The notes under the pieces are model-generated. The model saw only the letters and a list, made by a program, of their open reading frames with translations, did not search any database and had not been told where the DNA came from. Shown in pieces: positions 2-41,637 of a stretch of DNA of 64,000 nt (its first letter is position 1; every line of letters starts with the position of its first letter). The DNA comes from a virus (taxonomy: Duplodnaviria > Caudoviricetes), in the IMG/VR virus record IMGVR_UViG_3300005611_002069, positions 8,238 to 72,237 of that record. One strand, written 5' to 3'. A program made the position numbers and the translations under genes.

Positions 2-790
2 CAAGATCTAGATTGGATTCCTGAATGTGATGTGTTATTTAACCTAGCAGCAGAAAGTCACGTTGATAATTCTATTGAAGCTTGTTCTGAATTTATTGAC
101 TCAAATATCCATGGTGTTCGTAATTTACTAGAAATTATTGATAAAAATATAACACGAAGTACAGATAAGCCTTTATTTTTTCATTTTTCTACCGATGAAG
201 TTTATGGAGATCAATTAAAAGATAAGGTTACGGAAGAATCACCTCTTAAGCCGAGTAATCCATATTCAGCTACAAAAGCAGCTGCAGATATGTTAATTCA
301 GTCATGGGCTAGAACACACGGTTTAGACTATATAATTGTAAGACCTTCAAATAATTATGGAGCTTTTCAATATCCTGAAAAATTTTTACCTTTATCTATT
401 AAAAGATTACAGAGAGGTAAAAAAATCAAATTACATGATGGTGGAAACCCTATCAGAACTTGGACGCATGTTCACGATACTATATCTGCTGTTATGCTTT
501 TATTAGAAAAAGCCGATAGAAACCGAATTTATAATATCTCATCAGAATTTGAACAATCTAACTTAGAAACAGCAAAGAAAATAATCAGTACATTTTACTT
601 GGGTAAACCAAATAGAAAAATTCCAGATTTTGAAAAGCACATTGATACAACGTATAAAAGACCTGGACAAGATGTTAGATATGCGTTAAGATGTGATTAT
701 CTTAAACAGTATGGTTGGTTTCCACAGAAAAATTTTGATAATGAGATTGAAGCTCTTGTTAGTCACTACAGAGAAAGGTTTGTTTGGTAA
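2..790 (+). CDS. rfbB: dTDP-glucose 4,6-dehydratase (5'-partial; frame is open from base 2)
   Basis: HFSTDEVYG, PSNPYSATKAAAD (YxxxK), RPSNNYG..QYPEK and RPGQDVRYA motifs of the RmlB/RfbB family. Confidence 0.9.
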   Translation, partial: QDLDWIPECDVLFNLAAESHVDNSIEACSEFIDSNIHGVRNLLEIIDKNITRSTDKPLFFHFSTDEVYGDQLKDKVTEESPLKPSNPYSATKAAADMLIQSWARTHGLDYIIVRPSNNYGAFQYPEKFLPLSIKRLQRGKKIKLHDGGNPIRTWTHVHDTISAVMLLLEKADRNRIYNISSEFEQSNLETAKKIISTFYLGKPNRKIPDFEKHIDTTYKRPGQDVRYALRCDYLKQYGWFPQKNFDNEIEALVSHYRERFVW

Positions 791-1791
791 TGAAAGTGTT
801 TATAACAGGTGTTGCAGGATTATTAGGTAGCAATCTAGCAAAATATTTATGTCAAAAGAAAATAGAAGTTGTTGGTATAGACAACTTAATCGGCGGCATC
901 AAAAGTAATATTCACCCTAATATTCAATTTCATACTGCAGATATACTTAGTACAGATTCTTTAAAACAGTTGATGTGGGGATGTGATATTGTAGTGCATT
1001 GTGCATCTTTACCGTACGAAGGATTAAGTGTGTTTTCTCCTAAAATAACAGTAGAAAGTATAGTATCAGGTACTGTATCTGTTGCCTCAGCTGCTATTGC
1101 TAATAATGTGAAGCGATTTATTAACTTTTCATCAATGGCAAGATATGGTAGAGGAGTTCCTCCGTTTTTAGAAACTCATAAAACAGCTCCTGTAGATCCT
1201 TACGGTCTTGCAAAAATACAAGCAGAGGAACAACTAGAACTTTTAAGTAAAATTCACGGCCTAGACTACACTACCGTTGTGCCACATAATGTAATTGGTG
1301 TTGGTCAGAGGTTTAATGATCCCTATAGAAATGTCGTTGCCATTATGATTAATAGAATATTATCTGGTAGATCGGTAATAGTGTATGGAGACGGTGAACA
1401 AAAACGCTCTTTTAGTGATGTTAGTGATTGTATTGATGCTGTATATAAAATAATGACAAGTGATAGAAACCTTAAAGGTCAAGTTTATAATATTGGCCCC
1501 GATGAAAATGAGATAACCATTAAAGCTCTTGCATATAAGATAGGCCATTTAGCAAACATGTACCCAGAGCTTGAACACTTTCCTGATAGACCTACAGAAG
1601 TAAAAAATGCTTATTGTTCAAGTAATAAAATAAGAAAAGAATTTAATTACAATGCATCTGTACCTTTAGATCAAACTTTAAAAGATATGATAAGTTGGAT
1701 TAAACCAATTAGAAAAGCTTTTGAATATCATTTACCTATTGAGATAGAAAACGAAAATACCCCAAGAACCTGGAAAGAGAAACTAATATAA
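784..1791 (+). CDS. NAD-dependent nucleotide-sugar epimerase/dehydratase (extended SDR)
   Basis: TGVAGLLG Rossmann motif, FSSMARYG, PYGLAK (YxxxK). Confidence 0.9.
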   Translation: MVMKVFITGVAGLLGSNLAKYLCQKKIEVVGIDNLIGGIKSNIHPNIQFHTADILSTDSLKQLMWGCDIVVHCASLPYEGLSVFSPKITVESIVSGTVSVASAAIANNVKRFINFSSMARYGRGVPPFLETHKTAPVDPYGLAKIQAEEQLELLSKIHGLDYTTVVPHNVIGVGQRFNDPYRNVVAIMINRILSGRSVIVYGDGEQKRSFSDVSDCIDAVYKIMTSDRNLKGQVYNIGPDENEITIKALAYKIGHLANMYPELEHFPDRPTEVKNAYCSSNKIRKEFNYNASVPLDQTLKDMISWIKPIRKAFEYHLPIEIENENTPRTWKEKLI

Positions 1792-2507
1792 TGCAAGTCA
1801 TAACCCCTTATGTATTTGAAGAAGAAATTGCAAGTCATCAAATAAATTTTATGGATTATGATGTATATTATGAAAAAGACATTGCTGGAATAGGTTCAGA
1901 TTTAATGTTCCAAAAAATGTGGAATAAGTTTCCAGATAAGGATATTTTTATTCTCCATGCCGATATGGGAGTACACGATGAAGACTGGAATACTAAAATA
2001 AAAGAGTATGCCAAAAATTATCCAAATGCTGGAATGATTGGTTGTTTATTACTATACCCAGCTAAAGACGAAAAAGGTAACTATTATATACAGCACGCAG
2101 GAGGTAAATTTACCAACGATGTTCCTGATCATTATGGAAGTGGTCTAAATCTTGAAATGGGTAAACGATTTAAAGATGATTTAGAAATTGACACAGGACA
2201 GTACGATGAGGTTAGAGAAGTTGCTTGGACAACTTTTGGAGGATTATATATTCGTAGAGAGGTAATCAATAAAGTTGGTAATTTTTCTCCAGAATATGAG
2301 TGGACTTACAATAGGGATGTAGACTATTGTTTACAAGCTAGAAAACTAGGATATGATATTTTAAATGTTCCTGTGCGACTTTTACATCACGAATCACGGG
2401 ATAATAAAAGAATAAAAGACGATTCTAAATTAAAGATGGAAATGAGAAACCTTAAAACATTACAAGAAAAATGGAAAGGGACAAAATGGTACACGACCCT
2501 GGGGTAA
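1791..2507 (+). CDS. GT-A (GT2-like) glycosyltransferase
   Basis: ILHADM DxD-like motif, DVDYCLQARKLG and LLHHES C-terminal GT2 signature. Confidence 0.8.
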   Translation: MQVITPYVFEEEIASHQINFMDYDVYYEKDIAGIGSDLMFQKMWNKFPDKDIFILHADMGVHDEDWNTKIKEYAKNYPNAGMIGCLLLYPAKDEKGNYYIQHAGGKFTNDVPDHYGSGLNLEMGKRFKDDLEIDTGQYDEVREVAWTTFGGLYIRREVINKVGNFSPEYEWTYNRDVDYCLQARKLGYDILNVPVRLLHHESRDNKRIKDDSKLKMEMRNLKTLQEKWKGTKWYTTLG

Positions 2508-2525
2508 AATGCGGAGAAAAATGTT

Positions 2526-2741
2526 TTGATGAATAGATTTATTACAAAAGAAGAGCTAACTAAGACACTTAACAAAAAGCCTGCACAACTTTTTGCAGGT
2601 TTAGGTATACTAGTTTGGTTAGCAGGAGCATTTGTGTTGATGTTACCGCTTGTATTATGGACTTTGTGTTTAGCCATAATGTTTTACCCACTGTGGTATA
2701 TAGAAAATAAGATTAGAGGAGAAGAAAAAATTAATGGTTAA
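2526..2741 (+). CDS. small membrane protein
   Basis: long hydrophobic stretch LFAGLGILVWLAGAFVLMLPLVLWTLCLAIMFYPLW; overlaps the next gene start. Confidence 0.65.
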   Translation: MMNRFITKEELTKTLNKKPAQLFAGLGILVWLAGAFVLMLPLVLWTLCLAIMFYPLWYIENKIRGEEKING

Positions 2742-3480
2742 AATATCAAAAGAATATGTTGAAGGTTGTTTAAAGTTAGCAGATAGCGAAAACTCAAAAC
2801 TTACTATGACAGAAAGAGAACTAACAGGAGACAATTCTCCTAAACTTAAGAGCTTTTTAAATAATTTGTGCGCTAAAGATGGTACTAATTACTTAGAACT
2901 TGGAGTATACAGAGGAGCCAGTTTAATAAGCGCTATGTATGGTAATCTTAAGACAAAAGCAGTGGGGGTAGATAATTTTTCATATGATACTAAAGAAGTT
3001 AAAAAAGTACCTCCAAAAGGTTATATTTGGAGTAATGTTCAAAGTGCTCTGCACGATCGTATTAAAGTTTATACTAATACCCACGGTGCTAAAGTATTTG
3101 CACACGAAAATGTTAAGATTATTGAAGAAGATTTTACGAAAATAGAATGGCAAAAACAACCTAGATTCGATGTAATCAATTTTGATGTACTACCTATTAC
3201 ATACGATAATCTTGATGCACTATTTGATTTAGTTATAAAAAAAGCAACAGGACCAGAATGTGTTGTAGTAATAAACGGTTATTCTGATATTCAAAAATCT
3301 CAATGGGTAGATAATGCTCTTAAAACATACTCGAAAGACTTTGAAATTGTTTTTAAAGAGCAGAGAGTGTCTAGTAGTCAAAGAGATCATTTTGGTTATT
3401 ATAGCGGTATTTGTATAGTAGGACTAAAAAGAAAAACTAGTACAAACAGTAAACCAATAACAAAGAGTGTTAATAAATGA
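2734..3480 (+). CDS. class I SAM-dependent methyltransferase (Methyltransf_24-like)
   Basis: YLELGVYRGAS motif I, VGVDNF motif II, FDVINFD motif. Confidence 0.75.
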   Translation: MVKISKEYVEGCLKLADSENSKLTMTERELTGDNSPKLKSFLNNLCAKDGTNYLELGVYRGASLISAMYGNLKTKAVGVDNFSYDTKEVKKVPPKGYIWSNVQSALHDRIKVYTNTHGAKVFAHENVKIIEEDFTKIEWQKQPRFDVINFDVLPITYDNLDALFDLVIKKATGPECVVVINGYSDIQKSQWVDNALKTYSKDFEIVFKEQRVSSSQRDHFGYYSGICIVGLKRKTSTNSKPITKSVNK

Positions 3481-4307
3481 TTAAAAAGAGTGTTATAAGT
3501 TTGATTAGCTACGATGCTGAATATCTTCCAGCAAGCATCAAAACATACTATAATTATGTAGATGAAATTGTGCTTGGGTTAGATAAAAATAGAGTTACTT
3601 GGAGTAAGAATAATTTTACTTTTGATGAGAGTAAGTTATGGCAAGAACTAAGTGCTCTTGATGGAGATAGTAAAATTACTATAGTTGAAGAAGATTTTGT
3701 AAAATCAGATAAGCCTATAGAGAATGATAACTATGAAAGAAATTTTTTAAAAGAACAGTGTTCAAATGATTGGATATTTTCTTTTGACGCAGATGAAGAA
3801 CTTTTAAATGCAAAAGATTTCTTTACTTGGTATTGTCCCATAGTAGAACCATATTACAAAACAGCTGATATAATGATGACATGGGCAACTCCCTTTAAAA
3901 CTATTGATGACAAAACTTTAGTTATTGCAGAACCTAACGGTAACGCTTTTTTAAAAGAACCACAAGGAGTAGTTACATCAAAAGACAGCACATATGTATT
4001 CGCAAGATGGACAGATAAAGCGCAGAATCAATCTAAAAGATTAGCTTCTCCTCTTATAGCTTTACACTGGAGTCTTTGTAGGAAAAAAGATGATTTGCAC
4101 CAAAAAATACATAATATAGGACATAGTGATATTGTAGAAAATGATCCTTTTTATAAAATATGGAACGAAATAACACTAGAAAATCATAAAAACTACGTTA
4201 ATTTTAAAACTTCTGGTATGGGTCCGCAATGGCCCGCTTTAAGAGCTGTGCCCACAGCCCAACTTAAAGATTTCTATCTTGCTTTTGCAAAAGGAGTATA
4301 TCAATGA
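3477..4307 (+). CDS. GT2-like glycosyltransferase
   Basis: YVDEIVL, NYERNFLKEQC, DWIFSFDADE (DxD). Confidence 0.75.
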   Translation: MIKKSVISLISYDAEYLPASIKTYYNYVDEIVLGLDKNRVTWSKNNFTFDESKLWQELSALDGDSKITIVEEDFVKSDKPIENDNYERNFLKEQCSNDWIFSFDADEELLNAKDFFTWYCPIVEPYYKTADIMMTWATPFKTIDDKTLVIAEPNGNAFLKEPQGVVTSKDSTYVFARWTDKAQNQSKRLASPLIALHWSLCRKKDDLHQKIHNIGHSDIVENDPFYKIWNEITLENHKNYVNFKTSGMGPQWPALRAVPTAQLKDFYLAFAKGVYQ

Positions 4308-5461
4308 TAATAGAAATAATTGGAAAATTTTATGATAACCAGTCTCTTACTATAATTAATAGAGAATTAGCTATAGGATTGGCAAACAGTAATGACGTTT
4401 ATATTACTCCTCTTGATTCAATTAATCCAAGTGCAAAAGTTAGTAAAAACAAAATAAAAAAGATTATAGAACTTGAAAATAGACATTGGACTGATGATAC
4501 CGTACCTGATATTCAAATAAGACATAGCTATCCTCCTATCTGGAGATGGCCAGTACACGAAAAAACTAAAGTTGTCTACATCCAACCATGGGAATGGCAA
4601 AAAGTGCCTTTTGAGTGGCAGTATAAATGGGAGCAGTTTGCAGATGCTTTAATTGTTCCTAGTGCTTGGGAGGCTGAAAATATACTAAATGGAGGTTTAA
4701 ACCCTGAAAAATTGCACGTTGTGCCTAATGGATATGATCCTGAGGTGTTTAATAAAAAAGATAAAGCACCTGTTGCAGGCGTAGATCCTAATAAGTTTAA
4801 TTTTATATTTGTAGGGTGCCCTCAGTGGAGAAAAGGTCTAGATATTGTTTTAAACGCTTGGTCAAAAACATTTGTATCCGCTGATAACGCGAGACTTATT
4901 ATTAAAGATACTCCACAAGTATATGGAAATAACAATATACTTAATGAAATTGTTAAATTACAATACAATACGAGTTGTGCAGGTATACTATATTTAGATG
5001 ATAATTTTTCACAAGAAGAGATGGCAGCTATATATAAAAATAGTAAAGCAGTAGTACATCCTTATAGAGCTGAAGGGTTTGGAATGCACGTACAAGAAGC
5101 AGTAGCATCTGGTTGTGTGCCAATAATTTCTAATAAAGGACCAACTGATGAATTTATACCTAGTGTGGGGCTTGATTTAGATATGAGAGAGCAAAATATA
5201 AATATCAATGCGACTGAAGTATTTGCTCTTAAACCTGGAGATGCAACCACAATGATGAGCACTCATACAACTGTGCAAGAACCTACGGTTGATTCTGTAG
5301 CCAATGCGATGAGATCTCTTTATACACATCATCATAAAGACCAGTTTTTTGACAAGGTAAACAATTTTAATCTTGAAAATTCTTGGGAAAATGTTATAGT
5401 CAGGTATAACGAAGTATTAACTAAGATTAATACTAAATTGAAAACAGATAGGAATAAATAA
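4304..5461 (+). CDS. GT4 (GT-B) glycosyltransferase
   Basis: VVPNGYDPEVF, WRKGLDIVL, YRAEGFGMHVQEAVASG (ExxxxxxxE). Confidence 0.88.
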   Translation: MIIEIIGKFYDNQSLTIINRELAIGLANSNDVYITPLDSINPSAKVSKNKIKKIIELENRHWTDDTVPDIQIRHSYPPIWRWPVHEKTKVVYIQPWEWQKVPFEWQYKWEQFADALIVPSAWEAENILNGGLNPEKLHVVPNGYDPEVFNKKDKAPVAGVDPNKFNFIFVGCPQWRKGLDIVLNAWSKTFVSADNARLIIKDTPQVYGNNNILNEIVKLQYNTSCAGILYLDDNFSQEEMAAIYKNSKAVVHPYRAEGFGMHVQEAVASGCVPIISNKGPTDEFIPSVGLDLDMREQNININATEVFALKPGDATTMMSTHTTVQEPTVDSVANAMRSLYTHHHKDQFFDKVNNFNLENSWENVIVRYNEVLTKINTKLKTDRNK

Positions 5462-8359: not shown

Positions 8360-8537
8360 ATTATTTAAAAATATAGATGAAGTAAAAGAGTATGCTAGAG
8401 TAAATGGTTATGATACTCCAGAAGCTAATGATTTAATTAAGCAATGGGAAGAAATAGATAAAACTCCTAAAAAAATTAAAAAGAAAAAAATATTAAGCAT
8501 ATTACCTGAAGATGATGATACTGTTGAGGTAAAGTGA
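8340..8537 (+). CDS. hypothetical protein
   Basis: 65-aa ORF overlapping both neighbours. Confidence 0.55.
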   Translation: MNTDKLRLFKNIDEVKEYARVNGYDTPEANDLIKQWEEIDKTPKKIKKKKILSILPEDDDTVEVK

Positions 8538-9088
8538 GTACCTATAGATATTTAAAATTTAACTTAGAATCTGATCTATTAGCTGAATGTAAAAATTTAG
8601 TTTATTATAATTATGATGATAGAGATTTAAAAAATGCTATTACTGCTTGTGCTATTAGAAGTCCTGACGGTAAACCTAATAATATGTTTAAGGTAAATCC
8701 TGATATTTGCAGTAATTACATGTTTACTAGTATTGTAGGGTCAACACCTAAGCTTATGAGTGAAATTAGTAAATTTAAATGTAATACTGCAAGAATAAGA
8801 ATTTTAAAACAAGAACCAAAAAATGTAACGCCAATACACATTGATGAAGAAAATTGGCACAACCCTCCTGAAAAACACTTAAGAATTTGGATTGCAATTA
8901 ACCACAATCCTAACTTTATTTGTGTTTTTGGTAAAGATGAAATATGCTTAGAAAAAGGTCAGGGTGTTGTTTTTGATCCAGATACTCCTCATGGAGCAAA
9001 AAATATAGACAGTTCAGAAGCGAGATATTCGCTGAATATGATTGTCAAACCTAACAAATGGTTAAGAGAGAATACTATTGAATATTGA
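8534..9088 (+). CDS. second AspH-like Fe(II)/2OG oxygenase (GTG start)
   Basis: RIRILKQEPKNVTPIHID (HxD), DTPHGAKN, RYSLNM. Confidence 0.75.
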   Translation: MSTYRYLKFNLESDLLAECKNLVYYNYDDRDLKNAITACAIRSPDGKPNNMFKVNPDICSNYMFTSIVGSTPKLMSEISKFKCNTARIRILKQEPKNVTPIHIDEENWHNPPEKHLRIWIAINHNPNFICVFGKDEICLEKGQGVVFDPDTPHGAKNIDSSEARYSLNMIVKPNKWLRENTIEY

Positions 9089-9356
9089 TTTTGGCACTGC
9101 TTTTCATAAACCAAATGGAAACGCAGTAAAAGTAACTTTAAATGAGTTTAGAGATAAACTATATTTACACATAAGAGAATATTCTATGGATGGAGATACC
9201 GGTCAATGGTACCCAACTAAAAGTGGATTTTCGCTACTAGCAGATGAAACAAGTTCGCTACTTCCCTTATTAGAAGCAGCCAGCCAAGAAGTAGCCAAGC
9301 AATATATTCGTAGTAATCAATTAGAATTAGATTTGGAGATAACAAATGAGCGTTAA
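9078..9356 (+). CDS. PC4-like ssDNA-binding protein
   Basis: VTLNEFRDKLYLHIREY...WYPTKSGFSL matches PC4/YdbC family; T5 encodes a homologue in this region. Confidence 0.85.
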   Translation: MNIDFGTAFHKPNGNAVKVTLNEFRDKLYLHIREYSMDGDTGQWYPTKSGFSLLADETSSLLPLLEAASQEVAKQYIRSNQLELDLEITNER

Positions 9357-9654
9357 AGCTTGGAATGATGAAGAAGAAGCAAAACTTGTAGAAATGTATG
9401 TAGAGAGTGATATAAAAGATGTTTATACATTAGCAGATCATTTTTCTAAAGGTTACAGATCTGTTATAAGTAAGCTAGTACAATTAAAAATTTATGAGAA
9501 ACCTGTAATAGATCATGGAGAAAAAGGACAAACAGTTAAAGTTATGCTTCGTGAAATAGAAGAACTACTTGGAATTCAAGTAGAAGGTACAAACCTTAAC
9601 AAAAAGGAAAATCTTTCTTCTCTATTGGCCGCAATTAAAAGTAAAATAAATTAA
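9346..9654 (+). CDS. T5 D3-like DNA-binding protein
   Basis: AWNDEEEAKLVEMY...SVISKL..KIYEKP resembles the T5 D3 N-terminus; synteny with PC4. Confidence 0.65.
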   Translation: MSVKAWNDEEEAKLVEMYVESDIKDVYTLADHFSKGYRSVISKLVQLKIYEKPVIDHGEKGQTVKVMLREIEELLGIQVEGTNLNKKENLSSLLAAIKSKIN

Positions 9655-10794
9655 ATGATTAAAATTAATTGTTTATCTAGTAACTCTATGATTAAACAAT
9701 TTTGTGAGACATTAAAAATTGATTGCGAAGTAAATGAAGACGCCGATTTATGTGAATATTACATAAAAGGTTATGATTTTAACTCTCAACCTGAGTTATT
9801 CTCAAAATTATTAAGTAAAATAGATTGGGAGTTTATTAGTAAAAATAATAAAAAACTTATCTTTACTCATTTGATTATATATCATTTAGCTAAATTTGAA
9901 GAAGTCTTAACTTACTACATTGAAAAATATAATTGTCAAGACAAGGTTTTTTGGTATAGTTTTAATCCTTACGAGCTAACTTTTAAAAGATTAAATAAAA
10001 AAATCAATATTGCTTATTTTGACCCCTTAAATCATATACATATGGAAGCTAATTTGCATATTGGTAAGTGGAGTTACTTTCAAGGTAGTGAATTAAAAAG
10101 TTTTAATGAAGCTGATAAATACTTTATATCAACAAATCATAGACACGCAACTCATAGAGTTCTTAGTAATCATTTATTAAATACTAAAAAACTAATCAAA
10201 AAAGGTTATTATTCATTTTATCCCCCAGAAAATAATATTTACCATAATAAGCAACAACTAATTATAGATTTTGAAAAAAATTTAGAATCAATAAATAATT
10301 ACAAACTAGATATAAATAAAATTTGTGATGATATGAATTTCACTCATTTACTCGACAAAAGTGTGGCATCTCATTTTGGACTATATCCATCTACTGCAAA
10401 ATTTTATGAAAGATCACTAGTAAGTCATGTTACAGAATCATCGGTGTCTAATACTGAAATATTCCTTACTGAAAAAACATATCTTCCTCTTTTGTTAGGA
10501 AGACCTTTTTTGCTTATCGGCAATAAAGATAGTTTAAAATTTTTAAAAAAATATTATGGATTTAAAACCTTTGATAAGATTTTTGACGAGTCCTATGATA
10601 ATGAAAAATGTTTTATAAAAAGAACCATGAAAGTTACAAACGAGCTTGATAAGTTTTGCTCTTTACCTTTTTCTGTAGCAAAAGAAAAAGTTGAAAGTAT
10701 TTCTCATATATTATTACATAATAGAAAAGTTTGCGAAAGTTTTAACCCTGCCTATTTGTTCAGGAAAATGATAATGAAAATAACAGAAGGATAG
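9655..10794 (+). CDS. putative GT-B glycosyltransferase (GT10-like C-terminal motif), marine-phage family
   Basis: VTES..IFLTEKTYLPLLLGRPFLLIG...GFKTF..FDESYD; paralogue at 39981-41186. Confidence 0.5.
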   Translation: MIKINCLSSNSMIKQFCETLKIDCEVNEDADLCEYYIKGYDFNSQPELFSKLLSKIDWEFISKNNKKLIFTHLIIYHLAKFEEVLTYYIEKYNCQDKVFWYSFNPYELTFKRLNKKINIAYFDPLNHIHMEANLHIGKWSYFQGSELKSFNEADKYFISTNHRHATHRVLSNHLLNTKKLIKKGYYSFYPPENNIYHNKQQLIIDFEKNLESINNYKLDINKICDDMNFTHLLDKSVASHFGLYPSTAKFYERSLVSHVTESSVSNTEIFLTEKTYLPLLLGRPFLLIGNKDSLKFLKKYYGFKTFDKIFDESYDNEKCFIKRTMKVTNELDKFCSLPFSVAKEKVESISHILLHNRKVCESFNPAYLFRKMIMKITEG

Positions 10795-10797
10795 TAT

Positions 10798-11460
10798 ATG
10801 TATGTAAGATTAATTAGTTATTCTAAACCAGATAACATTATTGGTATAGATAATATTCAAGATTTAATTGCTTATTGTGCTAGAGTTAGTAATCCCGCTA
10901 ACCAAATGAATAAGGAAACAAGTGAAAAATTGATAAGATATTTGATTAAACATGGACATTGGTCACCTCTTGAGATGGTGTCAGCCTGTTTAGAAATAGA
11001 AACTACTAGAGATATCGCACACCAAATAGTAAGACATCGTAGTTTCTCTTTCCAAGAATTTAGTCAACGTTATGCTAATCCCGCTGAGATGGGCGATCAG
11101 TTTGTTCTGCGTGAAGCAAGATTGCAAGATACTAAAAATCGTCAGAACTCTATTGATACTGACGATGTTAACCTTCAAGACAGCTGGGAAGTAATTCAAA
11201 AAGATGTTATAAATGCAGCAGAATTAGCTTATAACTGGGCACTAGAAAACGGTATTGCAAAAGAACAAGCAAGATCTGTATTACCTGAAGGCAACACTAG
11301 AACTAAACTTTATATGAATGGCTCTATAAGAAGTTGGGTACACTACATTGAATTACGAAGTGGTAATGGCACACAAAAAGAACATATGGAAATTGCAAGA
11401 GGCTGTGCTTATGAACTCAAATCTATATTCCCTATGATAATGGAATTTGTAAATGACTGA
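10798..11460 (+). CDS. thyX: flavin-dependent thymidylate synthase
   Basis: HWSPLE and RHRSFSFQEFSQRY signature. Confidence 0.95.
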   Translation: MYVRLISYSKPDNIIGIDNIQDLIAYCARVSNPANQMNKETSEKLIRYLIKHGHWSPLEMVSACLEIETTRDIAHQIVRHRSFSFQEFSQRYANPAEMGDQFVLREARLQDTKNRQNSIDTDDVNLQDSWEVIQKDVINAAELAYNWALENGIAKEQARSVLPEGNTRTKLYMNGSIRSWVHYIELRSGNGTQKEHMEIARGCAYELKSIFPMIMEFVND

Positions 11461-12050: not shown

Positions 12051-13781
12051 ATGAATTACAAAGAACTCAAAGAGCTAATCCAAAAGCACAACAAAGCATA
12101 TTATGACAACTCAGCCTCTGCAATAGCAGATGCCGACTACGATCAGCTATATGACAAGTTGGAGGCTGTGGAGAAGGCTCAAGGTTGGAGAGACCACGAT
12201 TCACCTACAAAGCACGTAGGTGGCGCTCCAGGTAAGGTAAAACATCCTTATAAACTATACTCACTTCGTAAAGTGTTTAACGAAGATGAAGTAGATAGTT
12301 TTATGAGTATCAAACTCCCGAAGATTGATGGCACTAATCTTTCTCTAATTTACCGTAATGGAAAATTAAAGATGGGTTTGACCAGAGGTAACGGTGAACA
12401 TGGTAAAGATGTCTCGCATCTTATCGGAATGTTAAAAGGGTGTCCTACAAAAATTGATACACAATATGAAGAAGTTGTAATCAATGGAGAGTGTGTAACT
12501 GACAATACAGTAGATAATTATCGAAACTATGTTAGTGGTGCGCTTGGTCTTGACAGTCCTTCTGAGTTTGCTCAAAGAAACATAAAGTTTATTGCACATG
12601 ATTGGCTTGGTGTAAACATGAATTACACTCCAAGAATGAAAGTAATAAAAAATATGGGTTTCTTTACTGTGTTAGATGCAGAATCATGGAACTATCCTAT
12701 GGACGGCACTGTGTTCAGAACTGATAGCTGGGAAAAAGAACAAACTCTAGGACATACTGGAAAGTATCCTAGATTTGCAGTAGCTCTTAAACAAAGAGAA
12801 ACTGAAACAGCAATTACTACTTTACAAGATGTTCTTTGGACAATTGGTAGAACAGGTAGTGTTAACCCAACAGCTGTAGTAGAACCTGTAGTAGTAGAAG
12901 ATGCTACTATATCAAGGATAACTTTGCACAACATAGATTTCATTGAGCAACACGATCTAGGCTTAGGTGATACTATCAAGATTGAAAGATCAGGTGGTGT
13001 TATTCCTAAGTTCCTAGAAGTGATTGAACACTCTAAACACAATCTTAAAATTAATCAAGCACACGCAGAAAAAGCCATTGGACAAAAAGTTGTAAGAGAT
13101 GGCCCAAAACTAATGACAAAAAGTGGTGAAGGAGATTCAGTTAAGTTTTTAGAATACTTTATAAGAACCATGCAAATAAAAGGTCTTGGCCCTGCATCAA
13201 TTAAAAAATTAGGACTTATGCACCCCGTAGATTTATACAGTAACGTAAACTGGGATAGACTAGGTGCAAATGGCGCAAAGATTGAACAAGAGATTGAAAG
13301 AACTAAGACTAAACCTTATATGACTGTATTAGCAGCATTAGGAATTGAAGGTGTAGGTAACGGGGGAGCTAAACTTATTATTCCCCACATTCCAGCTTTC
13401 AGAAATTTAAGAGATATTGAATTTGCAGAGATCAAAGGAATTGGTCCTCGCACAAAAGAATCTATACTTTCTTGGTTAGACGAAAACGAAGAATGGGTAC
13501 TCGAACTGCCATTACAACTTGAACAAGAAGTAACGGTAGAAGAAGTATCTCAAACTGTAAAAAAAGTCTGTATTACTGGAAAGCTAGATATGACTCGCAA
13601 TCAACTTGTGAGTATTTTAGAGCCTTTAGGGTTTAAAAATACAAGTACTGTAACAAAGGACTGTTATGCCCTAATTACAGGAGATACTGGTAGTTCAAAA
13701 CATACCCGTGCTACTCAACTAGGTGTTAAGATAATTGACTATTGGTCAAGTAAAAAAAATGTGTTATCTGGTGATTTTTAA
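12051..13781 (+). CDS. ligA: NAD-dependent DNA ligase (single ORF; split in T5)
   Basis: KIDG adenylation motif, TRGNG, WTIGRTG, TLHN, RSGGVIP, C-terminal BRCT (VCITGKL). Confidence 0.95.
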   Translation: MNYKELKELIQKHNKAYYDNSASAIADADYDQLYDKLEAVEKAQGWRDHDSPTKHVGGAPGKVKHPYKLYSLRKVFNEDEVDSFMSIKLPKIDGTNLSLIYRNGKLKMGLTRGNGEHGKDVSHLIGMLKGCPTKIDTQYEEVVINGECVTDNTVDNYRNYVSGALGLDSPSEFAQRNIKFIAHDWLGVNMNYTPRMKVIKNMGFFTVLDAESWNYPMDGTVFRTDSWEKEQTLGHTGKYPRFAVALKQRETETAITTLQDVLWTIGRTGSVNPTAVVEPVVVEDATISRITLHNIDFIEQHDLGLGDTIKIERSGGVIPKFLEVIEHSKHNLKINQAHAEKAIGQKVVRDGPKLMTKSGEGDSVKFLEYFIRTMQIKGLGPASIKKLGLMHPVDLYSNVNWDRLGANGAKIEQEIERTKTKPYMTVLAALGIEGVGNGGAKLIIPHIPAFRNLRDIEFAEIKGIGPRTKESILSWLDENEEWVLELPLQLEQEVTVEEVSQTVKKVCITGKLDMTRNQLVSILEPLGFKNTSTVTKDCYALITGDTGSSKHTRATQLGVKIIDYWSSKKNVLSGDF

Positions 13782-35886: not shown

Positions 35887-36272
35887 CCACCAACTTTGAA
35901 AGAGTAAAAGTCTTTATGGAAACATTTGGACAAGAAGTAAAATCAGAAATTGAGTTACCCGATAAAAATACTCAAAAACTAAGAGTTCGTTTAATACAAG
36001 AAGAACTTACTGAGTTAATACAGGCATTAGCAGTAGAAGATGAAGTAGAAGTAGCAGATGCATTGACCGATATACTATATGTTACTTATGGAGCAGGTCA
36101 TGCTTTTGGAATAGACCTTGATGCTTGTTTTAAAGAAGTTCAAGAATCAAACATGAGTAAACTAGGAGCTGATGGGAAACCTGTATATAGATCAGACGGT
36201 AAAGTACAAAAAGGTCCAAACTACTGGAAACCAAATCTGCATAAGATACTATATAAGGAATTAAATGGCTAA
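35883..36272 (+). CDS. MazG-like all-alpha NTP pyrophosphatase (DR2231/PRA-PH-like)
   Basis: EELTEL..EVADALTDILYV, EVQESNMSK, DGKVQKGP. Confidence 0.85.
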   Translation: MTTNFERVKVFMETFGQEVKSEIELPDKNTQKLRVRLIQEELTELIQALAVEDEVEVADALTDILYVTYGAGHAFGIDLDACFKEVQESNMSKLGADGKPVYRSDGKVQKGPNYWKPNLHKILYKELNG

Positions 36273-36966
36273 CGGAAATAGCAACGGAAAACACCACTTA
36301 CGTAGGGTGCGAATAGACGACCTACTAACACACGACCCTATTACAATAAATCAGAAAAAAGTTTACGAAGCATATAAAAAAGGTAACAATCTTTTTCTTC
36401 ATGGCATAGCTGGAACAGGTAAAACATTTATTAGTTTATACTTAGCTCTCGAAGAAGTCTTAGATAGAAGTAGTGTGTATAATGACATAATCATTGTTAG
36501 AAGTGCAGTTACTACTAGAGATATAGGTTTTCTGCCAGGCGATGAACAAGAAAAAGTTTCTATGTACGAAGCTCCGTATAGGTCAATCTGTGCGGAGCTT
36601 TTTAATGTAAAAGATGCTTATGACTCACTTAAAGCACAAGGCAATGTAAAGTTTATGAGTACGTCTTTCATTAGGGGCATAACGATAAATCACGCCATAG
36701 TGATTGTGGATGAATGTCAGAACTTGAATTTTCATGAACTTGATAGTATAATAACTAGAGTTGGAAAAGACGCAAAAATTATATTCTGTGGAGATTACAA
36801 CCAAACAGACTTACAAAAAGATAATGATAAGAAGGGTGTTCTTGAATTTATGAAAATACTCTCTGAAGTTAATCACTTTGAAAAAGTTGAATTTGTAATA
36901 GATGACATTGTAAGGTCTGACTTTTTAAAAGAGTACATAATAGCAAAATATAAACTAGGATTTTAG
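36265..36966 (+). CDS. phoH: PhoH family ATPase
   Basis: GIAGTGKT, IGFLPG, RGITI, IVDECQN, GDYNQTD. Confidence 0.93.
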   Translation: MANGNSNGKHHLRRVRIDDLLTHDPITINQKKVYEAYKKGNNLFLHGIAGTGKTFISLYLALEEVLDRSSVYNDIIIVRSAVTTRDIGFLPGDEQEKVSMYEAPYRSICAELFNVKDAYDSLKAQGNVKFMSTSFIRGITINHAIVIVDECQNLNFHELDSIITRVGKDAKIIFCGDYNQTDLQKDNDKKGVLEFMKILSEVNHFEKVEFVIDDIVRSDFLKEYIIAKYKLGF

Positions 36967-36977
36967 AGTAATAACTC

Positions 36978-37499
36978 ATGTTCGTAAAAGAAGTAAAAAT
37001 AGACTTTGATTTTAATTTTGAAGAGGTTGCTTGGGAAGAACACGCCCATAATTGCATACCATATCAAAAAGTAGAACTTAAAGATGTGCATGATAAGGTT
37101 GGTGGTTTTCCAAAATCATTAACTGTAAAGAACACTATGTTTTATCAAAAATTTTTTACTAGAGAAGAGATAGATTATAAAAATTTAGAAGAGCAATTAG
37201 GGATAGAAGCTGTTACGGTATCTATTATTAAACAACCTCCAGGTATGACTAATCCATTACATAGAGATACTTTTTACCAGATAAATAAACTTTACCCTAA
37301 TGATAAAAGACTTAAAGTAAGAGCTAATATCCAACTACTAGATTGGAAAGATGGTCATTTTCTTCAATATAATAAAACAGTGGTTAGTCATTGGAAAAAG
37401 AACACAGGACATATGTGGGATTCAGACGTGTTACATCTAGCAGTAAATGCAGGTTTAGAAGATAGATACTCACTACAAGTATCAGGATTTTTACAATGA
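36978..37499 (+). CDS. cupin/Fe(II)-2OG-type oxygenase
   Basis: KQPPG..PLHRD (HxD), LHLAVNAG, RYSLQVSG. Confidence 0.7.
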   Translation: MFVKEVKIDFDFNFEEVAWEEHAHNCIPYQKVELKDVHDKVGGFPKSLTVKNTMFYQKFFTREEIDYKNLEEQLGIEAVTVSIIKQPPGMTNPLHRDTFYQINKLYPNDKRLKVRANIQLLDWKDGHFLQYNKTVVSHWKKNTGHMWDSDVLHLAVNAGLEDRYSLQVSGFLQ

Positions 37500-38338
37500 T
37501 AAGATTCAAAGGAGCAACCAGTGTTGCTGATGTTGAAGTTCTGTATAAAATTCATGAAGGGCATCAAGAGTGTAAAGTAAAAGACTTCCTTGAAGAGTAT
37601 AAAGAATGGATGCAAAAAGGACATAATATTAATGGACTGGACAAGTTTACCCACCTTAGTTATGCAAATGGAACTACTGAGGTATTTGATAAGTTTTATC
37701 TTAGGCATTTAGAAAAAAGATTAAGATTTTTTAAAGGTGAATACTACTATCATAGTATAGCTGCAAGAGAGTGGTTTAGAGATAGATTTGCCTTTATTGA
37801 AGATGATGTTATAAAAAATGATGACGTAGTAGTTATAAGTGTACCTTTTAGTGATACAGGAAATTTACATTTCTATTATGATTGGCTGATGAAAGAGTGT
37901 TGCGAAAAAAATGTTCCTGTTTTGGTAGACATGGCATACATAAACCTAACAAAAAACTTTGAGTTGTCTCTTGATTATGATTGTATAGAAACAGTAGCAA
38001 CAAGTCTAAGTAAAGTATTTCCTGTGCAGTATTATAGAATAGGAATGAGACTTAATAAAGAGTTTAGAGATGATACTTTAGATGCTTACACTGATCAAAA
38101 CTATGTAAATCAGACCAGTGTTAACATGGGTTGTCATTTAATTAATAATTTTAGTAATACTCACACATATAATAAATACATTAATAAACAGAAAAAAATA
38201 TGCTGGGAGCTTGATGTTGAGCCTAGTGATTGCGTAATATTTGGGATAGATAAAAAAAATTTTCACCCAAAGCTAAACAGAGGCGGTAAGACTAATAGAT
38301 TGTGTTTCAGCAGATTATGGGGTAACAATGGCGTGTAA
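37496..38338 (+). CDS. fold-type I PLP-dependent enzyme (short, aminotransferase I/II-like)
   Basis: VLVDMAY (PLP Asp) and TSLSKVFP..YRIG (Schiff-base Lys). Confidence 0.72.
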   Translation: MIRFKGATSVADVEVLYKIHEGHQECKVKDFLEEYKEWMQKGHNINGLDKFTHLSYANGTTEVFDKFYLRHLEKRLRFFKGEYYYHSIAAREWFRDRFAFIEDDVIKNDDVVVISVPFSDTGNLHFYYDWLMKECCEKNVPVLVDMAYINLTKNFELSLDYDCIETVATSLSKVFPVQYYRIGMRLNKEFRDDTLDAYTDQNYVNQTSVNMGCHLINNFSNTHTYNKYINKQKKICWELDVEPSDCVIFGIDKKNFHPKLNRGGKTNRLCFSRLWGNNGV

Positions 38339-39353
38339 CAATGATTGGAGTCCTTTAGAAGAGATAATAGTTGGAACAGCAGATTATGCTTCTATACCTT
38401 TGACTAATATAAGCACTATGAAATGCCAGTTTCCAGAGTATGAAGAAGAATATATCAAACAATACACTGGTTTTTTCCCACAACAAATTATTGATGAACA
38501 AAATGAAGACTTAGAAAAATTATCTGATGTTCTAAAAAAACTAGGTGTAAAAGTCCACAGACCAGACACACAGTACGCGGAAACAGAAACTGTGTCACCC
38601 AACTGGAGAGGTAAAAACTGGCACTATCATTGTCCTCGTGATTTAACATTAGTTGTTGGAGATACACTTATAGAAACTCCTTCACCAATCTGGAATCGTC
38701 AATACGAGACTTGGGCTTATAGGAAGATTTTTACAGAACTGTTTAATGAAGGATATAATTGGGTAAAGGCGCCTATTCCTATTCTTTATGATGAAAATTA
38801 TAAAGAGAACACAAAAGGAGTTCCTGCTCTTAATAATCTAGAAATTTTATTTGAAGCGGCAAACTGTATAAGAATCAACGAAGATATATTGTATCAAGTT
38901 TCAAACACAGGAAATGAAAATGGTGCTAAATGGTTACAGCGTACCTTAGGAGATAAGTATAAAGTTCATGTAGCTACAGATCTGTATTCATATGCACATC
39001 TAGATAGCACGATAGTGCCTTTGAGAGAAGGCTTAGTGCTTTATAATGCACACAGAGTCACACCACAGAATGAGCCTGAGATATTTAAGTCATGGGATAA
39101 AATCTGGATAAATGAGTGTGTAGGGCCTGATACTTCACCCTTTAATCTGCCTTGGGGTGCTAGTGAGTGGATTGGTTTAAATCTTTTAAGTATAAACGAA
39201 AATCTTGCTATTGTAGACAAGAAACAAACACAAATACATGAAAGAATGAAGTCTTTTGGAATTGAAACAATACCACTTGAACTCAGGCATGATAGAATTA
39301 TAAGTGGAGGATTTCATTGCGTAACGCTGGACTTAAAAAGAAAAATATCATAA
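38328..39353 (+). CDS. amidinotransferase, StrB1 (inosamine-phosphate) type
   Basis: NDWSPLEEIIVG, CPRD, FEAAN, GNENGAKWLQ, HLDSTIVPLREGLVL, SEWIGLNLL, GGFHCVTLD; acid-His-Cys triad present. Confidence 0.9.
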   Translation: MACNNDWSPLEEIIVGTADYASIPLTNISTMKCQFPEYEEEYIKQYTGFFPQQIIDEQNEDLEKLSDVLKKLGVKVHRPDTQYAETETVSPNWRGKNWHYHCPRDLTLVVGDTLIETPSPIWNRQYETWAYRKIFTELFNEGYNWVKAPIPILYDENYKENTKGVPALNNLEILFEAANCIRINEDILYQVSNTGNENGAKWLQRTLGDKYKVHVATDLYSYAHLDSTIVPLREGLVLYNAHRVTPQNEPEIFKSWDKIWINECVGPDTSPFNLPWGASEWIGLNLLSINENLAIVDKKQTQIHERMKSFGIETIPLELRHDRIISGGFHCVTLDLKRKIS

Positions 39354-40003
39354 TCTGTGGAGAAAGTTTTAGTTATGGTACTGGAGAGAAACACTGGCCT
39401 CAAATTGTGGCTCAAAAAACCAATCGTAATTTAAATAATCTTGCAATAGTAGGGTGTAGCAACTACGCAATTTGTTTTCAACTTCAATACGCTTTAACCT
39501 TTCTTAAACCTGACGATCTAGTAATAATATCTTTAACTGCTGCAGAGCGTTTTGAAATTGACGATGACGAACATAATGTTCCAGCAAGTATATCAGATTT
39601 TAGACACAATATTGATGAAATAACTGACTCACCGTATAATAAGACTCCAACAATCACATCTGGCAATTTATCATCTCACTTACGTAATTATCATATTGAG
39701 CGAATAAAAAAGTATATGATGATAAGCTCTTATAGGCTTTCAGCTCAATACCAAGCATGGTGTATAAATTATTTACTGTCAAAGGTACAAAGTAAATATT
39801 TACTTTACAGAAATATATTTCCAAGGTATCATTCTAATAAAGAGATGTATAAAAAAGAGTATTACTTTGACTTAGAAAATTACATCAACTCAGGGCCGTA
39901 TGACTTTGAGACTAAACAAGTAAGCACCACGAATCATCTTTCAAATAACGATAATATCTCATTTGCTAAAAGGGTCTTAGATGACTATAGAATTAATTTT
40001 TGA
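39317..40003 (+). CDS. SGNH/GDSL-fold protein (TTG start, GGAGG SD inside the upstream gene)
   Basis: ICGESFSYG block I, NLAIVGCSN block II, C-terminal NH. Confidence 0.6.
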   Translation: MRNAGLKKKNIIICGESFSYGTGEKHWPQIVAQKTNRNLNNLAIVGCSNYAICFQLQYALTFLKPDDLVIISLTAAERFEIDDDEHNVPASISDFRHNIDEITDSPYNKTPTITSGNLSSHLRNYHIERIKKYMMISSYRLSAQYQAWCINYLLSKVQSKYLLYRNIFPRYHSNKEMYKKEYYFDLENYINSGPYDFETKQVSTTNHLSNNDNISFAKRVLDDYRINF

Positions 40004-41186
40004 AAACTATCCAGAACCAAATATAGGAATGTTTGCTAATAAGAGAGAGTCAATTCCTTTTTTTCTCCAATTAAATAAACAATATAAAATATGTAATATA
40101 GACCACATATATAATTCAAACAATTGGGTATATCCGATTGCAATAAAAAACCCTATTTTAGAAAAAGATATTTATATAAATAGCTCTGCTTCAAATACGA
40201 ATTTTTTTATAAATCGTATAGATCAGAGAGTGCTAGAGGAAATAGCTAAAGGTAGAGGCTGGATCTGTATAGATGTAACAGAAGAACCGATAAGTAACCA
40301 TAGTTTAGCACACTTAGTAAATTATATTAGAAACTGTGTATCATACGAGTTTAAAAGGTCAAATATAAAAAAACTGTTAGAAAGAACTTTTATTCTAACC
40401 AGACAAATGAAGTCCTCTAGACGTCCTTACATAAATAGCGATTTTGTATTTAATCTCACAAGTAGAAGAGAGGCAGACGTTCAATTTTTAAATTCTACTG
40501 CTATGGCTGGCATTGTTAATAATCCCTCTGTGGAGTCTCAAGTTAAAGTACAGGGCAAAAAAGTATATTCTTTTTTTAATTATGATTATACTACAGAGCA
40601 TATAAGGTTTATCTCTATAGCCCTCTTACAAAAACTAGAACTTCTGGACTATGGTCATATAAGTCTTTTAGACAAAGGTAAGTACTTCTCAGATTATTAT
40701 CATGATTTTTGTGGTACATACAATAAGAGGAAAATGAATATTACATTTAACCAAACTGATAAAGTTCACGAGTTATTAGATGTAGTAGACACCCTTAATA
40801 AGTCTTACATAAACTTAGTTATGGAAGCATACTATGATATTGCTGATATTGATACTTTATATATAACAGAAAAAACTTTTAGAAATTATTATCTTAAAAA
40901 ACCTTTTATTGTAATAGGACAATCTGAGACGTTATCAGCCTTGAAAAATATAGGATATAAAAGTTTTCATCCATATATAAATGAAGAATATGATGAAACC
41001 GTAAGCGGATCGGTAAGATTACAAAAGATATTTAAGGAGCTCAAAAGACTATGTTCCTTTACTGAAGAAGATTGGAAAGAGTTTTATAAAAATATATCTC
41101 CAATACTAGAGCATAATTTTAAAATAAATACAGAAGTGAGGCCAAAGACCTCATACGAAACTTTCAAAGAGTATATTAATGGCTAA
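39981..41186 (+). CDS. putative GT-B glycosyltransferase (GT10-like motif), paralogue of 9655-10794
   Basis: YINLVME..YITEKTF..KPFIVIG..GYKSFHPYINEEYD. Confidence 0.5.
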   Translation: MTIELIFENYPEPNIGMFANKRESIPFFLQLNKQYKICNIDHIYNSNNWVYPIAIKNPILEKDIYINSSASNTNFFINRIDQRVLEEIAKGRGWICIDVTEEPISNHSLAHLVNYIRNCVSYEFKRSNIKKLLERTFILTRQMKSSRRPYINSDFVFNLTSRREADVQFLNSTAMAGIVNNPSVESQVKVQGKKVYSFFNYDYTTEHIRFISIALLQKLELLDYGHISLLDKGKYFSDYYHDFCGTYNKRKMNITFNQTDKVHELLDVVDTLNKSYINLVMEAYYDIADIDTLYITEKTFRNYYLKKPFIVIGQSETLSALKNIGYKSFHPYINEEYDETVSGSVRLQKIFKELKRLCSFTEEDWKEFYKNISPILEHNFKINTEVRPKTSYETFKEYING

Positions 41187-41637
41187 TACAAGCAAAAATA
41201 AAGGTAGTGCTTATGAAGCTAAGATAGCAAAACTACTTACAAATGAGTTTAAGGTTGAATTTAGAAGAGTGCCTTTAAGTGGTGCGATTGACTATCTCAA
41301 AGGAGATATATGGACACCAAAAGATACAGCCTGGTGGCCTTATTGTATAGAGTGTAAACACTATAAGGATATACAGTGGAATAATTTTCTTACTTCAAAA
41401 ACAACAGATATGTTAGTGTTTTGGAAGCAAACATTAAGAGAGGCAGAGGTGATGGATAAAAAACCTCTACTAATTTTCAGATGGAATAGATCGAAAGATT
41501 TTGTAGCATTTAATGATGAGTTACTCGTTGAACACTATGTAGAAATAAAGTCTTTTGGTTGTCACTTTAAAATAACTCTATTAGATGAATGGATAAAGTG
41601 CATTAAAAACCAATCTTTTGTTGCCAAGTCATCATGA
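41179..41637 (+). CDS. Holliday-junction resolvase-like nuclease (T5 D14)
   Basis: KGSAYE, RRVPLSGA, GDI, IECKHYK (PD-(D/E)xK). Confidence 0.88.
   Translation: MANTSKNKGSAYEAKIAKLLTNEFKVEFRRVPLSGAIDYLKGDIWTPKDTAWWPYCIECKHYKDIQWNNFLTSKTTDMLVFWKQTLREAEVMDKKPLLIFRWNRSKDFVAFNDELLVEHYVEIKSFGCHFKITLLDEWIKCIKNQSFVAKSS

Follow-up and report, generated by a model that had tools for sequence, protein, structure and literature searches.

What is an amidinotransferase resembling an enzyme of streptomycin biosynthesis doing in the genome of a marine phage, and what do the genes around it make? The question is raised by five genes, here called g1 to g5, that occupy positions 36978-41186 of a 64,000-nt stretch of viral DNA (the window; positions 8,238 to 72,237 of IMG/VR virus record IMGVR_UViG_3300005611_002069) between a phoH-like and a D14-like gene. 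The carrier is an uncultured marine T5-like phage, with a G+C content of ~32% and a T5-like gene order across the window; its 72-kb record is ~63% complete, and absences from it are therefore weak evidence. We find that these genes do form a biosynthetic cassette and are translationally coupled, that g1, g2 and g3 form its conserved core whereas g4 and g5 are variable accessories, and that its product is most likely a positively charged guanidino compound.

The strongest evidence comes from g3 (38328..39353, on the plus strand like every cassette and flanking gene described here), which encodes an L-arginine-dependent amidinotransferase of StrB1 type, 341 aa in length. In a phmmer search of the PDB, residues 3-338 of g3 align end to end with residues 6-339 of StrB1 (1BWD), the L-arginine:scyllo-inosamine-4-phosphate amidinotransferase of S. 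griseus, with 279 bits and an E-value of 4.4e-82. StrB1 is the best solved relative of g3, belongs to the same length class and matches it in its catalytic motifs. The next matches lie 90-110 bits lower and comprise HsvA (5WPI, a solved polyamine amidinotransferase; 188 bits, E 1.6e-54), SxtG (6U1R; 179 bits, E 1.5e-51) and arginine:glycine amidinotransferase (AGAT, for example 1JDW; 166-173 bits, E 6e-50 and weaker), the three together spanning E-values of 1e-48 to 1e-54. These enzymes share with g3 the pentein fold, the Cys-His-acid chemistry and L-arginine as donor, but have longer chains (383-423 aa) and use other acceptors. A preliminary description of this DNA had assigned g3 to the StrB1 pattern rather than to creatine-type AGAT, and the assignment holds: StrB1 scores far above AGAT, and all of the motifs then quoted are present in the alignment. 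A Pfam scan gave no match for g3; phrog_25854 matches it at E 2e-36, and a protein search of metagenomes recovered 4071 relatives at E<=1e-20.

An alignment of 14 diverse phage and metagenome sequences of the g3 family identified seven invariant residues of interest: D105, E176, H224, D226, R243, S279 and C331. The catalytic cysteine is C331, within the GGFHC motif, and the catalytic histidine H224, both of them invariant, with E176 as the acidic partner. D105, D226, R243 and S279 match the arginine-binding positions of StrB1 in the alignment; from the AGAT and StrB1 structures we presume that the two aspartates bind the guanidinium group, and the arginine and serine the carboxylate. The single departure from the StrB1 motifs is the acidic partner itself, a glutamate (FEAAN) where StrB1 has an aspartate (FDAAN, D179). 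No sequence of the phage clade departs from this glutamate, which is also the residue in 19 of 82 cellular homologues gathered with a search pattern that biases the sample, and to judge from the alignment the change is a conservative substitution that became fixed in the phage clade. Furthermore, in its alignment with StrB1, g3 shows none of the additional segments found in AGAT-type enzymes, an absence that, given the StrB1 and AGAT structures, would fit a roomy acceptor site. On the basis of its sequence, g3 is very likely active and arginine-dependent.

The first gene of the core, g1 (36978..37499), encodes a minimal protein of 173 aa. As with g2, its family could be resolved by structure prediction only: g1 has no Pfam match, and a profile search of the PDB with the orthologue alignment returned nothing. 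The AlphaFold2 (AF2) model built from orthologue alignments reached a predicted local distance difference test (pLDDT) score of 94 and matched AusE, AsqJ, AspH and P4H in a Foldseek search of the PDB (E 5e-7), while VIA-align gave Z scores of 10.9-10.0 to prolyl hydroxylases, SnoK, AspH, PolD, AlkB and EvdO2. H95, D97, R115 and H153 are invariant across 15 g1 orthologues, with H95-x-D97...H153 forming the iron site. The model thus places g1 among Fe(II)/2-oxoglutarate (2OG) dioxygenases with a double-stranded beta-helix fold and an HxD...H motif; the earlier reading had called it a cupin oxygenase. The structural neighbours are tied in score, and the fold therefore does not distinguish between small-molecule, protein and nucleic-acid substrates.

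With prolyl, lysyl and aspartyl hydroxylases of proteins as the best structural neighbours of g1, and HsvA as the second-best PDB match of g3, the acceptor could be a different one: g3 might amidinate polyamines in the manner of HsvA, or protein lysine or ornithine side chains hydroxylated by g1, to yield cationic polyamines with a part in DNA packaging or altered proteins of the virion or the host. The virion proteome of cyanophage S-SCSM2R does include both an amidinotransferase and a prolyl hydroxylase (PMC12801897), but this is a second amidinotransferase of that phage: a tblastn search finds a single place for g3 in its genome, and the virion-associated enzyme is a different, more distant gene. 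Given also that HsvA scores ~90 bits below StrB1, that the protein hydroxylases are tied in Z score with small-molecule oxygenases, and that an aminotransferase would have no obvious role, we regard this explanation as very unlikely.

The aminotransferase in question is g2 (37496..38338; 280 aa), a HisC-like protein of fold-type I and class I/II that would depend on pyridoxal 5'-phosphate (PLP). Its AF2 model has a pLDDT of 78 and a predicted template modelling score (pTM) of 0.81, and the top Foldseek matches are HisC, C-S lyases and a CobD-type decarboxylase (E 6e-10). In the orthologue alignment D145, Y148, S170, S172, K173, R181 and R268 are invariant. By analogy with known enzymes of this fold, these residues fit D145 as the aspartate facing the pyridine nitrogen, K173 in SLSK (SxSK) as the Schiff-base lysine and arginine as a ligand of carboxylate or phosphate. 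An orthologue 43% identical to g2, in the T4-like contig L070, passes the Pfam model Aminotran_1_2 (PF00155) with 30.4 bits against a cut-off of 19.7 bits, and the NCBIfam hisC model matches g2 at E 1.4e-5; the copy in the window has no Pfam match, is ~30 aa shorter at its N-terminus than its orthologues, and gave no hit in a PDB profile search with the orthologue alignment. We conclude from the model that g2 is a shrunken class I/II aminotransferase with its lysine kept, which bears out the earlier designation of a PLP enzyme.

Do these three genes belong together? Scanning IMG/VR recovered 67 loci with a g3 that is 72-84% identical, and the counts given here for related loci refer, feature by feature, to those with enough flank. 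A g1 gene lies upstream of g3 in 54 of 55 loci; g2 is adjacent to g3 in 48 of 55 and lies just upstream, with inserted genes between, in a further six, so that g1 and g2 are each linked to g3 in 54 of 55, and the cassette recurs widely in viromes. By contrast, g4 is directly downstream of g3 in only 23 of 53 loci, and g5-family genes are found in 19 of 26, in 32 copies and with up to five per locus; the five-gene cassette of the preliminary description therefore stands as a three-gene core with accessories. The order of a PhyH-like gene followed by g1, g2, g3, an SGNH-like gene and a g5-like gene recurs in L070, which carries gp5 and, upstream, a C5 DNA methylase, and in L071, a phage contig with CsgF/CsgG; in these two contigs g1, g2 and g3 are 43-63% identical to those of the window. 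The interval between phoH and D14 is a hotspot whose content varies widely among relatives, and the genes might accordingly be unrelated passengers of a hypervariable insertion site that form no single pathway. This is highly improbable, since g1, g2 and g3 stay together across T5-like phages, T4-like phages and contigs from bacterial metagenome-assembled genomes (MAGs) while their surroundings change, and since the gene ends overlap.

With the folds or families of g1 to g3, their catalytic residues and their linkage established, we infer an order of steps, a sugar-like substrate, a transfer step and a target. We give about an even chance to a pathway in which a sugar-like or phosphorylated small molecule is oxidised, transaminated and amidinated, its product possibly being passed on, probably to a glycan or another macromolecule. 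Here g1 would oxidise a C-H or carbinol of a small, probably sugar-like or phosphate- or nucleotide-bearing substrate to a carbonyl, or otherwise prepare it; the HisC-like g2 would turn the carbonyl into a primary amine with an amino acid as donor; and g3 would take the amidino group of L-arginine onto Cys331, release ornithine and pass the group to the amine, leaving a permanently cationic guanidino group. Accessory gene products may then trim, acylate or transfer the product, the acceptor probably being made in early or middle infection. In this phage the accessories are g4, which is SGNH-like, and g5, which may be GT10-like; relatives could achieve further tailoring with their PhyH-like oxygenase, sulfotransferase and methyltransferases and with a B12-binding radical S-adenosylmethionine (SAM) enzyme. 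To our knowledge, StrB1-type guanidinylation is known from bacterial antibiotic and toxin pathways and not from viruses.

We favour a sugar-like or phosphorylated substrate because g3 is much nearer to a cyclitol-phosphate enzyme than to enzymes acting on glycine, lysine or polyamines, because HisC and CobD-type enzymes, which act on phosphorylated substrates, are among the folds closest to g2, because the accessories found with the core are glycan-like (a sulfotransferase, a carbamoyltransferase in L081, methyltransferases, the SGNH protein and a possible glycosyltransferase family), and because the genome has a sugar-nucleotide and glycosyltransferase island of its own, with a 4,6-dehydratase-type short-chain dehydrogenase/reductase (SDR) and a GT4 glycosyltransferase. 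Several observations weigh on the other side. Protein, nucleic-acid and small-molecule oxygenases are all found at similar Z among the neighbours of g1; g2 is of the HisC-like class I/II and not of the DegT/StsC type usual on sugars and cyclitols; Pfam and NCBIfam scans of the cassette gave no kinase, dehydrogenase or nucleotidyltransferase; many relatives manage without g4 and g5; and g5 failed every hidden Markov model (HMM) test as a glycosyltransferase.

Some of the same observations would suit a free guanidino amino acid or small metabolite, such as homoarginine, a guanidino acid or an analogue of arginine that has been hydroxylated or rearranged, acting unattached as a metabolic or antibiotic-like effector. 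Pairs of Fe/2OG oxygenases and PLP enzymes tailor arginine in VioC/VioD-type routes, and VioC/VioD and OrfP/OrfR resemble the cassette in coupling an Fe/2OG oxygenase to a fold-type I PLP enzyme on a guanidino compound; however, the likeness is drawn at the level of enzyme class, and these routes start from arginine and have no amidinotransferase. The class of g2 is that of alpha-amino-acid aminotransferases, and it keeps a C-terminal arginine (Arg268) typical of carboxylate binding. As g4 and g5 are often absent, the core is perhaps self-sufficient, and the cyanophage homologue has been annotated as an "antibiotic synthesis" gene (PMC12801897). Against this, g3 is far closer to StrB1 than to amidinotransferases of glycine, lysine or polyamines, the recurring neighbours are of glycan type (sulfotransferase, carbamoyltransferase, the multi-copy g5 family), and no exporter or self-resistance gene was seen among the scanned ORFs, and we therefore consider a free metabolite plausible but unlikely.

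The macromolecular pathway that we prefer shares with the streptidine branch of streptomycin biosynthesis the logic of making a carbonyl, transaminating it and amidinating the amine with arginine, and the cassette had accordingly been called streptidine-pathway-like. The StrB1-type g3 and the three-step logic make this a reasonable comparison, but it does not extend to the other enzymes. Searches with Pfam and NCBIfam found no NAD/inositol dehydrogenase, no StsC/DegT aminotransferase and no kinase in the cassette, which also lacks a phosphatase; oxidation in the phage would use an Fe/2OG oxygenase, and the phage aminotransferase is HisC-like where that of streptidine synthesis is DegT/StsC-like. 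The amidinotransferases themselves differ in that the phage sequences form a clade separate from those of actinomycetes and have glutamate rather than aspartate as the acid of the triad.

The separation is evident in a quick maximum-likelihood tree of g3 homologues, which has an arbitrary root and does not include StrB1 itself. The marine-phage sequences form one clade (support 100), whose sister group (support 99) consists of four sequences, drawn from Bdellovibrionota, a gammaproteobacterial MAG and a Chloroflexota MAG; the next branch joins S-SCSM2R with a Pseudobdellovibrionaceae sequence, followed by a large actinomycete clade, so that in this tree g3 falls outside the actinomycete StrB clade. 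The best cellular matches to g3, searched in one genome per GTDB species, are 40-48% identical. Because g1-, g2- and g5-like genes surround the amidinotransferase in Bdellovibrionota MAG contigs, and g5-like genes lie near it in a Chloroflexota contig, the module is not restricted to phages. The Chloroflexota contig additionally has a B12 radical SAM gene, a 2OG oxygenase gene and a NodU/CmcH-type carbamoyltransferase gene near the amidinotransferase, and the module travels with tailoring enzymes of glycan or aminoglycoside style. The nearest cellular amidinotransferases (48%), with g1-, g2- and g5-like genes, are on two Bdellovibrionota MAG contigs (L072 and L073) where the islands adjoin a tyrosine recombinase (integrase) gene and a ComM-like gene, an arrangement suggestive of a mobile island, or else of viral DNA that was mis-binned.

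Among cultured phages (August 2025 collection) there is no close copy of g3, and no cultured T5-like phage carries the cassette; a nucleotide search of the cultured phages matched phoH alone. The best cultured matches to g3 are in cyanophage S-SCSM2R (39% identity) and in Campylobacter phages (25-30%), and both have been noted in print. In 2010 the Campylobacter phages CP220 and CPt10 were reported to have putative glycine amidinotransferases within radical-SAM clusters (PMC2853527), and the "inosamine amidinotransferase" of S-SCSM2R was classed as an antibiotic-synthesis gene in 2025 (PMC12801897). In S-SCSM2R (ORF308-309) a small 2OG oxygenase gene lies directly upstream of the amidinotransferase gene, within a glycosyltransferase-rich island, and g2 is absent; the Campylobacter phage enzymes are found among radical SAM genes, likewise without a g2 aminotransferase. 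The likeness to the present cassette is thus of phage-borne amidinotransferases among oxidative tailoring enzymes and glycosyltransferases. A gene of 173 aa upstream in the Campylobacter phages was considered as a g1 homologue, but is not homologous despite its identical length. Neither these two papers nor our literature searches yielded a functional test of any phage amidinotransferase. The earlier statement that no phage pathway of this kind has been described consequently holds for function, although phage amidinotransferase genes as such were already published.

Of the two accessory genes in the window, g4 (39317..40003, TTG start) encodes a 228-aa protein that is a putative hydrolase or acyl-transferase of SGNH/GDSL type. 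Members of the family conserve a GESFS block with an invariant Ser17, together with G46, N49 and H207, which would correspond to the block I Ser, the block II/III Gly and Asn and the block V His of SGNH enzymes; the family alignment shows no aspartate three residues before H207, however, and HMM support for the earlier SGNH assignment is weak, with Lipase_GDSL_2 (Pfam) matching two of 13 family members (E 2.2e-4) and a PDB profile search weakly matching the GDSL protein 4RSH (E 0.03). The TTG start is preceded by GGAGG six bases upstream (window 39306-39320). As the preliminary description had pointed out, this Shine-Dalgarno-like sequence lies within Ser-Gly-Gly-Phe codons of g3: inside the catalytic motif of that gene, Gly-Gly codons supply the GGAGG and His-Cys codons the TTG. 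The arrangement is real, but conservation of the TTG, the GGAGG and the first dozen residues of g4 is forced by g3 coding and is therefore no proof of the start. The same site is present in 21 related loci, locking the g4 translation signal to the g3 catalytic motif, and relatives without the GGAGG (L031 and L049) have an ATG ~30 nt downstream instead.

The other accessory gene, g5 (39981..41186; 401 aa), belongs to an orphan family, and its earlier description as glycosyltransferase-like fared less well. Conservation is concentrated in the C-terminal part (E282 ... YITEKTFRN ... KKPFI..GQ ... GYKSF ... EEYD), with a variable N-terminal half. No Pfam, PHROG or PDB match was obtained for g5, including PDB profile searches at two depths; Pfam scans of 18 and 89 relatives gave no glycosyltransferase family, and an alignment-based search of a set of 5.8 billion proteins yielded 39 relatives, none with a Pfam domain. 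Assignment to GT10 by its model, PF00852, was tried and rejected, as the model has no match anywhere in the record. What speaks for a sugar transferase is a set of leads: the C-terminal motif E...YITEKTFRN...KKPFI.GQ resembles that of alpha-1,3-fucosyltransferases, with a GT10-like E...YITEK(x)(F/W)RN pattern; in the ESM Atlas, the closest clusters that have a name are annotated Glyco_transf_10, though the score does not exceed 0.77-0.78; and a fusion to a UDP-glucose/GDP-mannose dehydrogenase is seen in one of 89 relatives. A GT-B/GT10-like sugar transferase is thus possible, as a lead and not a finding. The family is very large, with 11,883 representative clusters at E<=1e-3 and many tandem fusions.

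Relatives of the cassette contain further genes that the window lacks. The most frequent is a PhyH-like gene (~370 aa) that precedes g1 in 39 of 42 related loci (Pfam PhyH E 7.6e-6; for example L028:3434-4555, L070:2228-3280 and L071:1018-2097) and is absent from the window and from the whole 72-kb record. Its iron motif is F-H-Q-G, with an invariant glycine where PhyH enzymes have HxD, and a second invariant histidine lies in HGN(V/I)NN. Fe/2OG halogenases have iron motifs of this kind, as does AspH with its two-His site, and in most relatives the pathway may include a step of halogenase or two-His oxygenase type, carried out by this enzyme. The C-terminal ~150 aa belong to no recognised family, and a PDB profile search of the PhyH-like gene gave nothing useful. 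Other inserts in relatives encode a Sulfotransfer_2 protein, a B12-binding radical SAM enzyme, a 2OG-FeII_Oxy_5 protein, methyltransferases and a DctP-type binding protein. The Sulfotransfer_2 gene (E 1.8e-9) lies between a g5-like gene and g3 in four loci (L002, L003, L009 and L014), and in one of these a gene for a DctP/TRAP solute-binding protein (L009:9433-10404; E 6e-37) lies just downstream of the cassette. None of the small ORFs beside the cassette in relatives looked, on inspection, like a carrier protein or a precursor peptide.

In the window, the coupling of the five co-directional genes is exactly as first described from the ORF coordinates: g1 and g2 overlap by 4 nt, g2 and g3 by 11 nt, g3 and g4 by 37 nt, g4 and g5 by 23 nt, and g5 and the D14-like gene by 8 nt. 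Pfam confirms both flanks. Upstream is a phoH-like ATPase gene (36265..36966; Pfam PhoH E 4.7e-44, phrog_170 E 1e-80), syntenic in 35 related loci, which is the left border of the hypervariable insertion site; downstream, the gene for a D14-like PDDEXK nuclease (41179..41637; Pfam PDDEXK_15 E 1.1e-30), syntenic in 43 related loci, is its right border and is followed by a D15-type 5'-3' flap exonuclease gene and then by a dUTPase-like and a GT28-like gene. A scan of the block found no promoter-like or terminator-like signal above the shuffled background, and given this and the overlapping gene ends we consider g1 to g5 to belong to a single long transcription unit of the early or middle class.

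The position of the cassette inside a co-directional block of DNA-metabolism genes (phoH, D14, D15 and dut-like) raises the alternative of DNA hypermodification, in which the oxygenase would act on a base substituent, the aminotransferase would turn this into an aminomethyl-type group and the amidinotransferase would make a guanidino group of it, or else g5 would attach a guanidino sugar to DNA. The C5 DNA methylase just upstream of the cassette in L070 fits this view, as does the second pair of an oxygenase and a g5 paralogue beside ThyX and DNA ligase genes in the genome under study, and hypermodification of phage DNA by oxygenases with glycosyltransferases is an established theme (bioRxiv 10.1101/2023.12.21.572611), although that preprint does not mention the enzyme types of the cassette. 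Nevertheless, the 72-kb record, incomplete as it is, contains an ordinary ThyX and no C5 methylase, Tet/JBP or ThyA-type hydroxymethylase, g1 is not specifically TET/JBP-like, the same core occurs in the Bdellovibrionota MAG contigs, and a full-text literature search found no guanidino DNA base, all of which makes hypermodification of the phage DNA quite unlikely.

More broadly, several marine phage lineages might attach a guanidino sugar or a related building block to virion DNA, virion protein or the host envelope, a generalisation that we put forward tentatively and hold to be rather doubtful. We know of no virus with a cationic arginine-derived modification of this sort. If the proposal is true, a guanidino group on DNA, virions or the surface of infected cells would be a new phage chemistry, relevant to evasion of defence, adsorption or superinfection exclusion; if instead the product is a free guanidino metabolite, the cassette would represent a new, arginine-consuming type of auxiliary metabolism. 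Either way a known kind of chemistry would appear in a new biological setting, in a cassette that is compact and widespread: the module is common to T5-like and T4-like marine phages and has thousands of metagenomic relatives, so its product should be common in the ocean. As the three core enzymes are small and soluble-looking, the question is open to direct expression and mass spectrometry.

Two other regions of the window deserve mention. Positions 784-5461 are part of the sugar-nucleotide and glycosyltransferase island, where the SDR is of the 4,6-dehydratase/epimerase type (E 3e-51) and the GT4 gene (E 4e-13) is separated from it by three unassigned ORFs. The second oxygenase and g5-paralogue pair is at 8534-10794: the oxygenase is a PhyH/Asp_Arg_Hydrox-like protein of 184 aa, distantly g1-like (E 0.002), and the g5 paralogue (379 aa), two small ORFs further on, is 35% identical to g5 in its C-terminal domain (E 6e-13). 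Directly downstream of this pair are the genes for ThyX (10798-11460) and a NAD-dependent DNA ligase (12051-13781). It may be that small oxygenases act in pairs with members of the g5 family.

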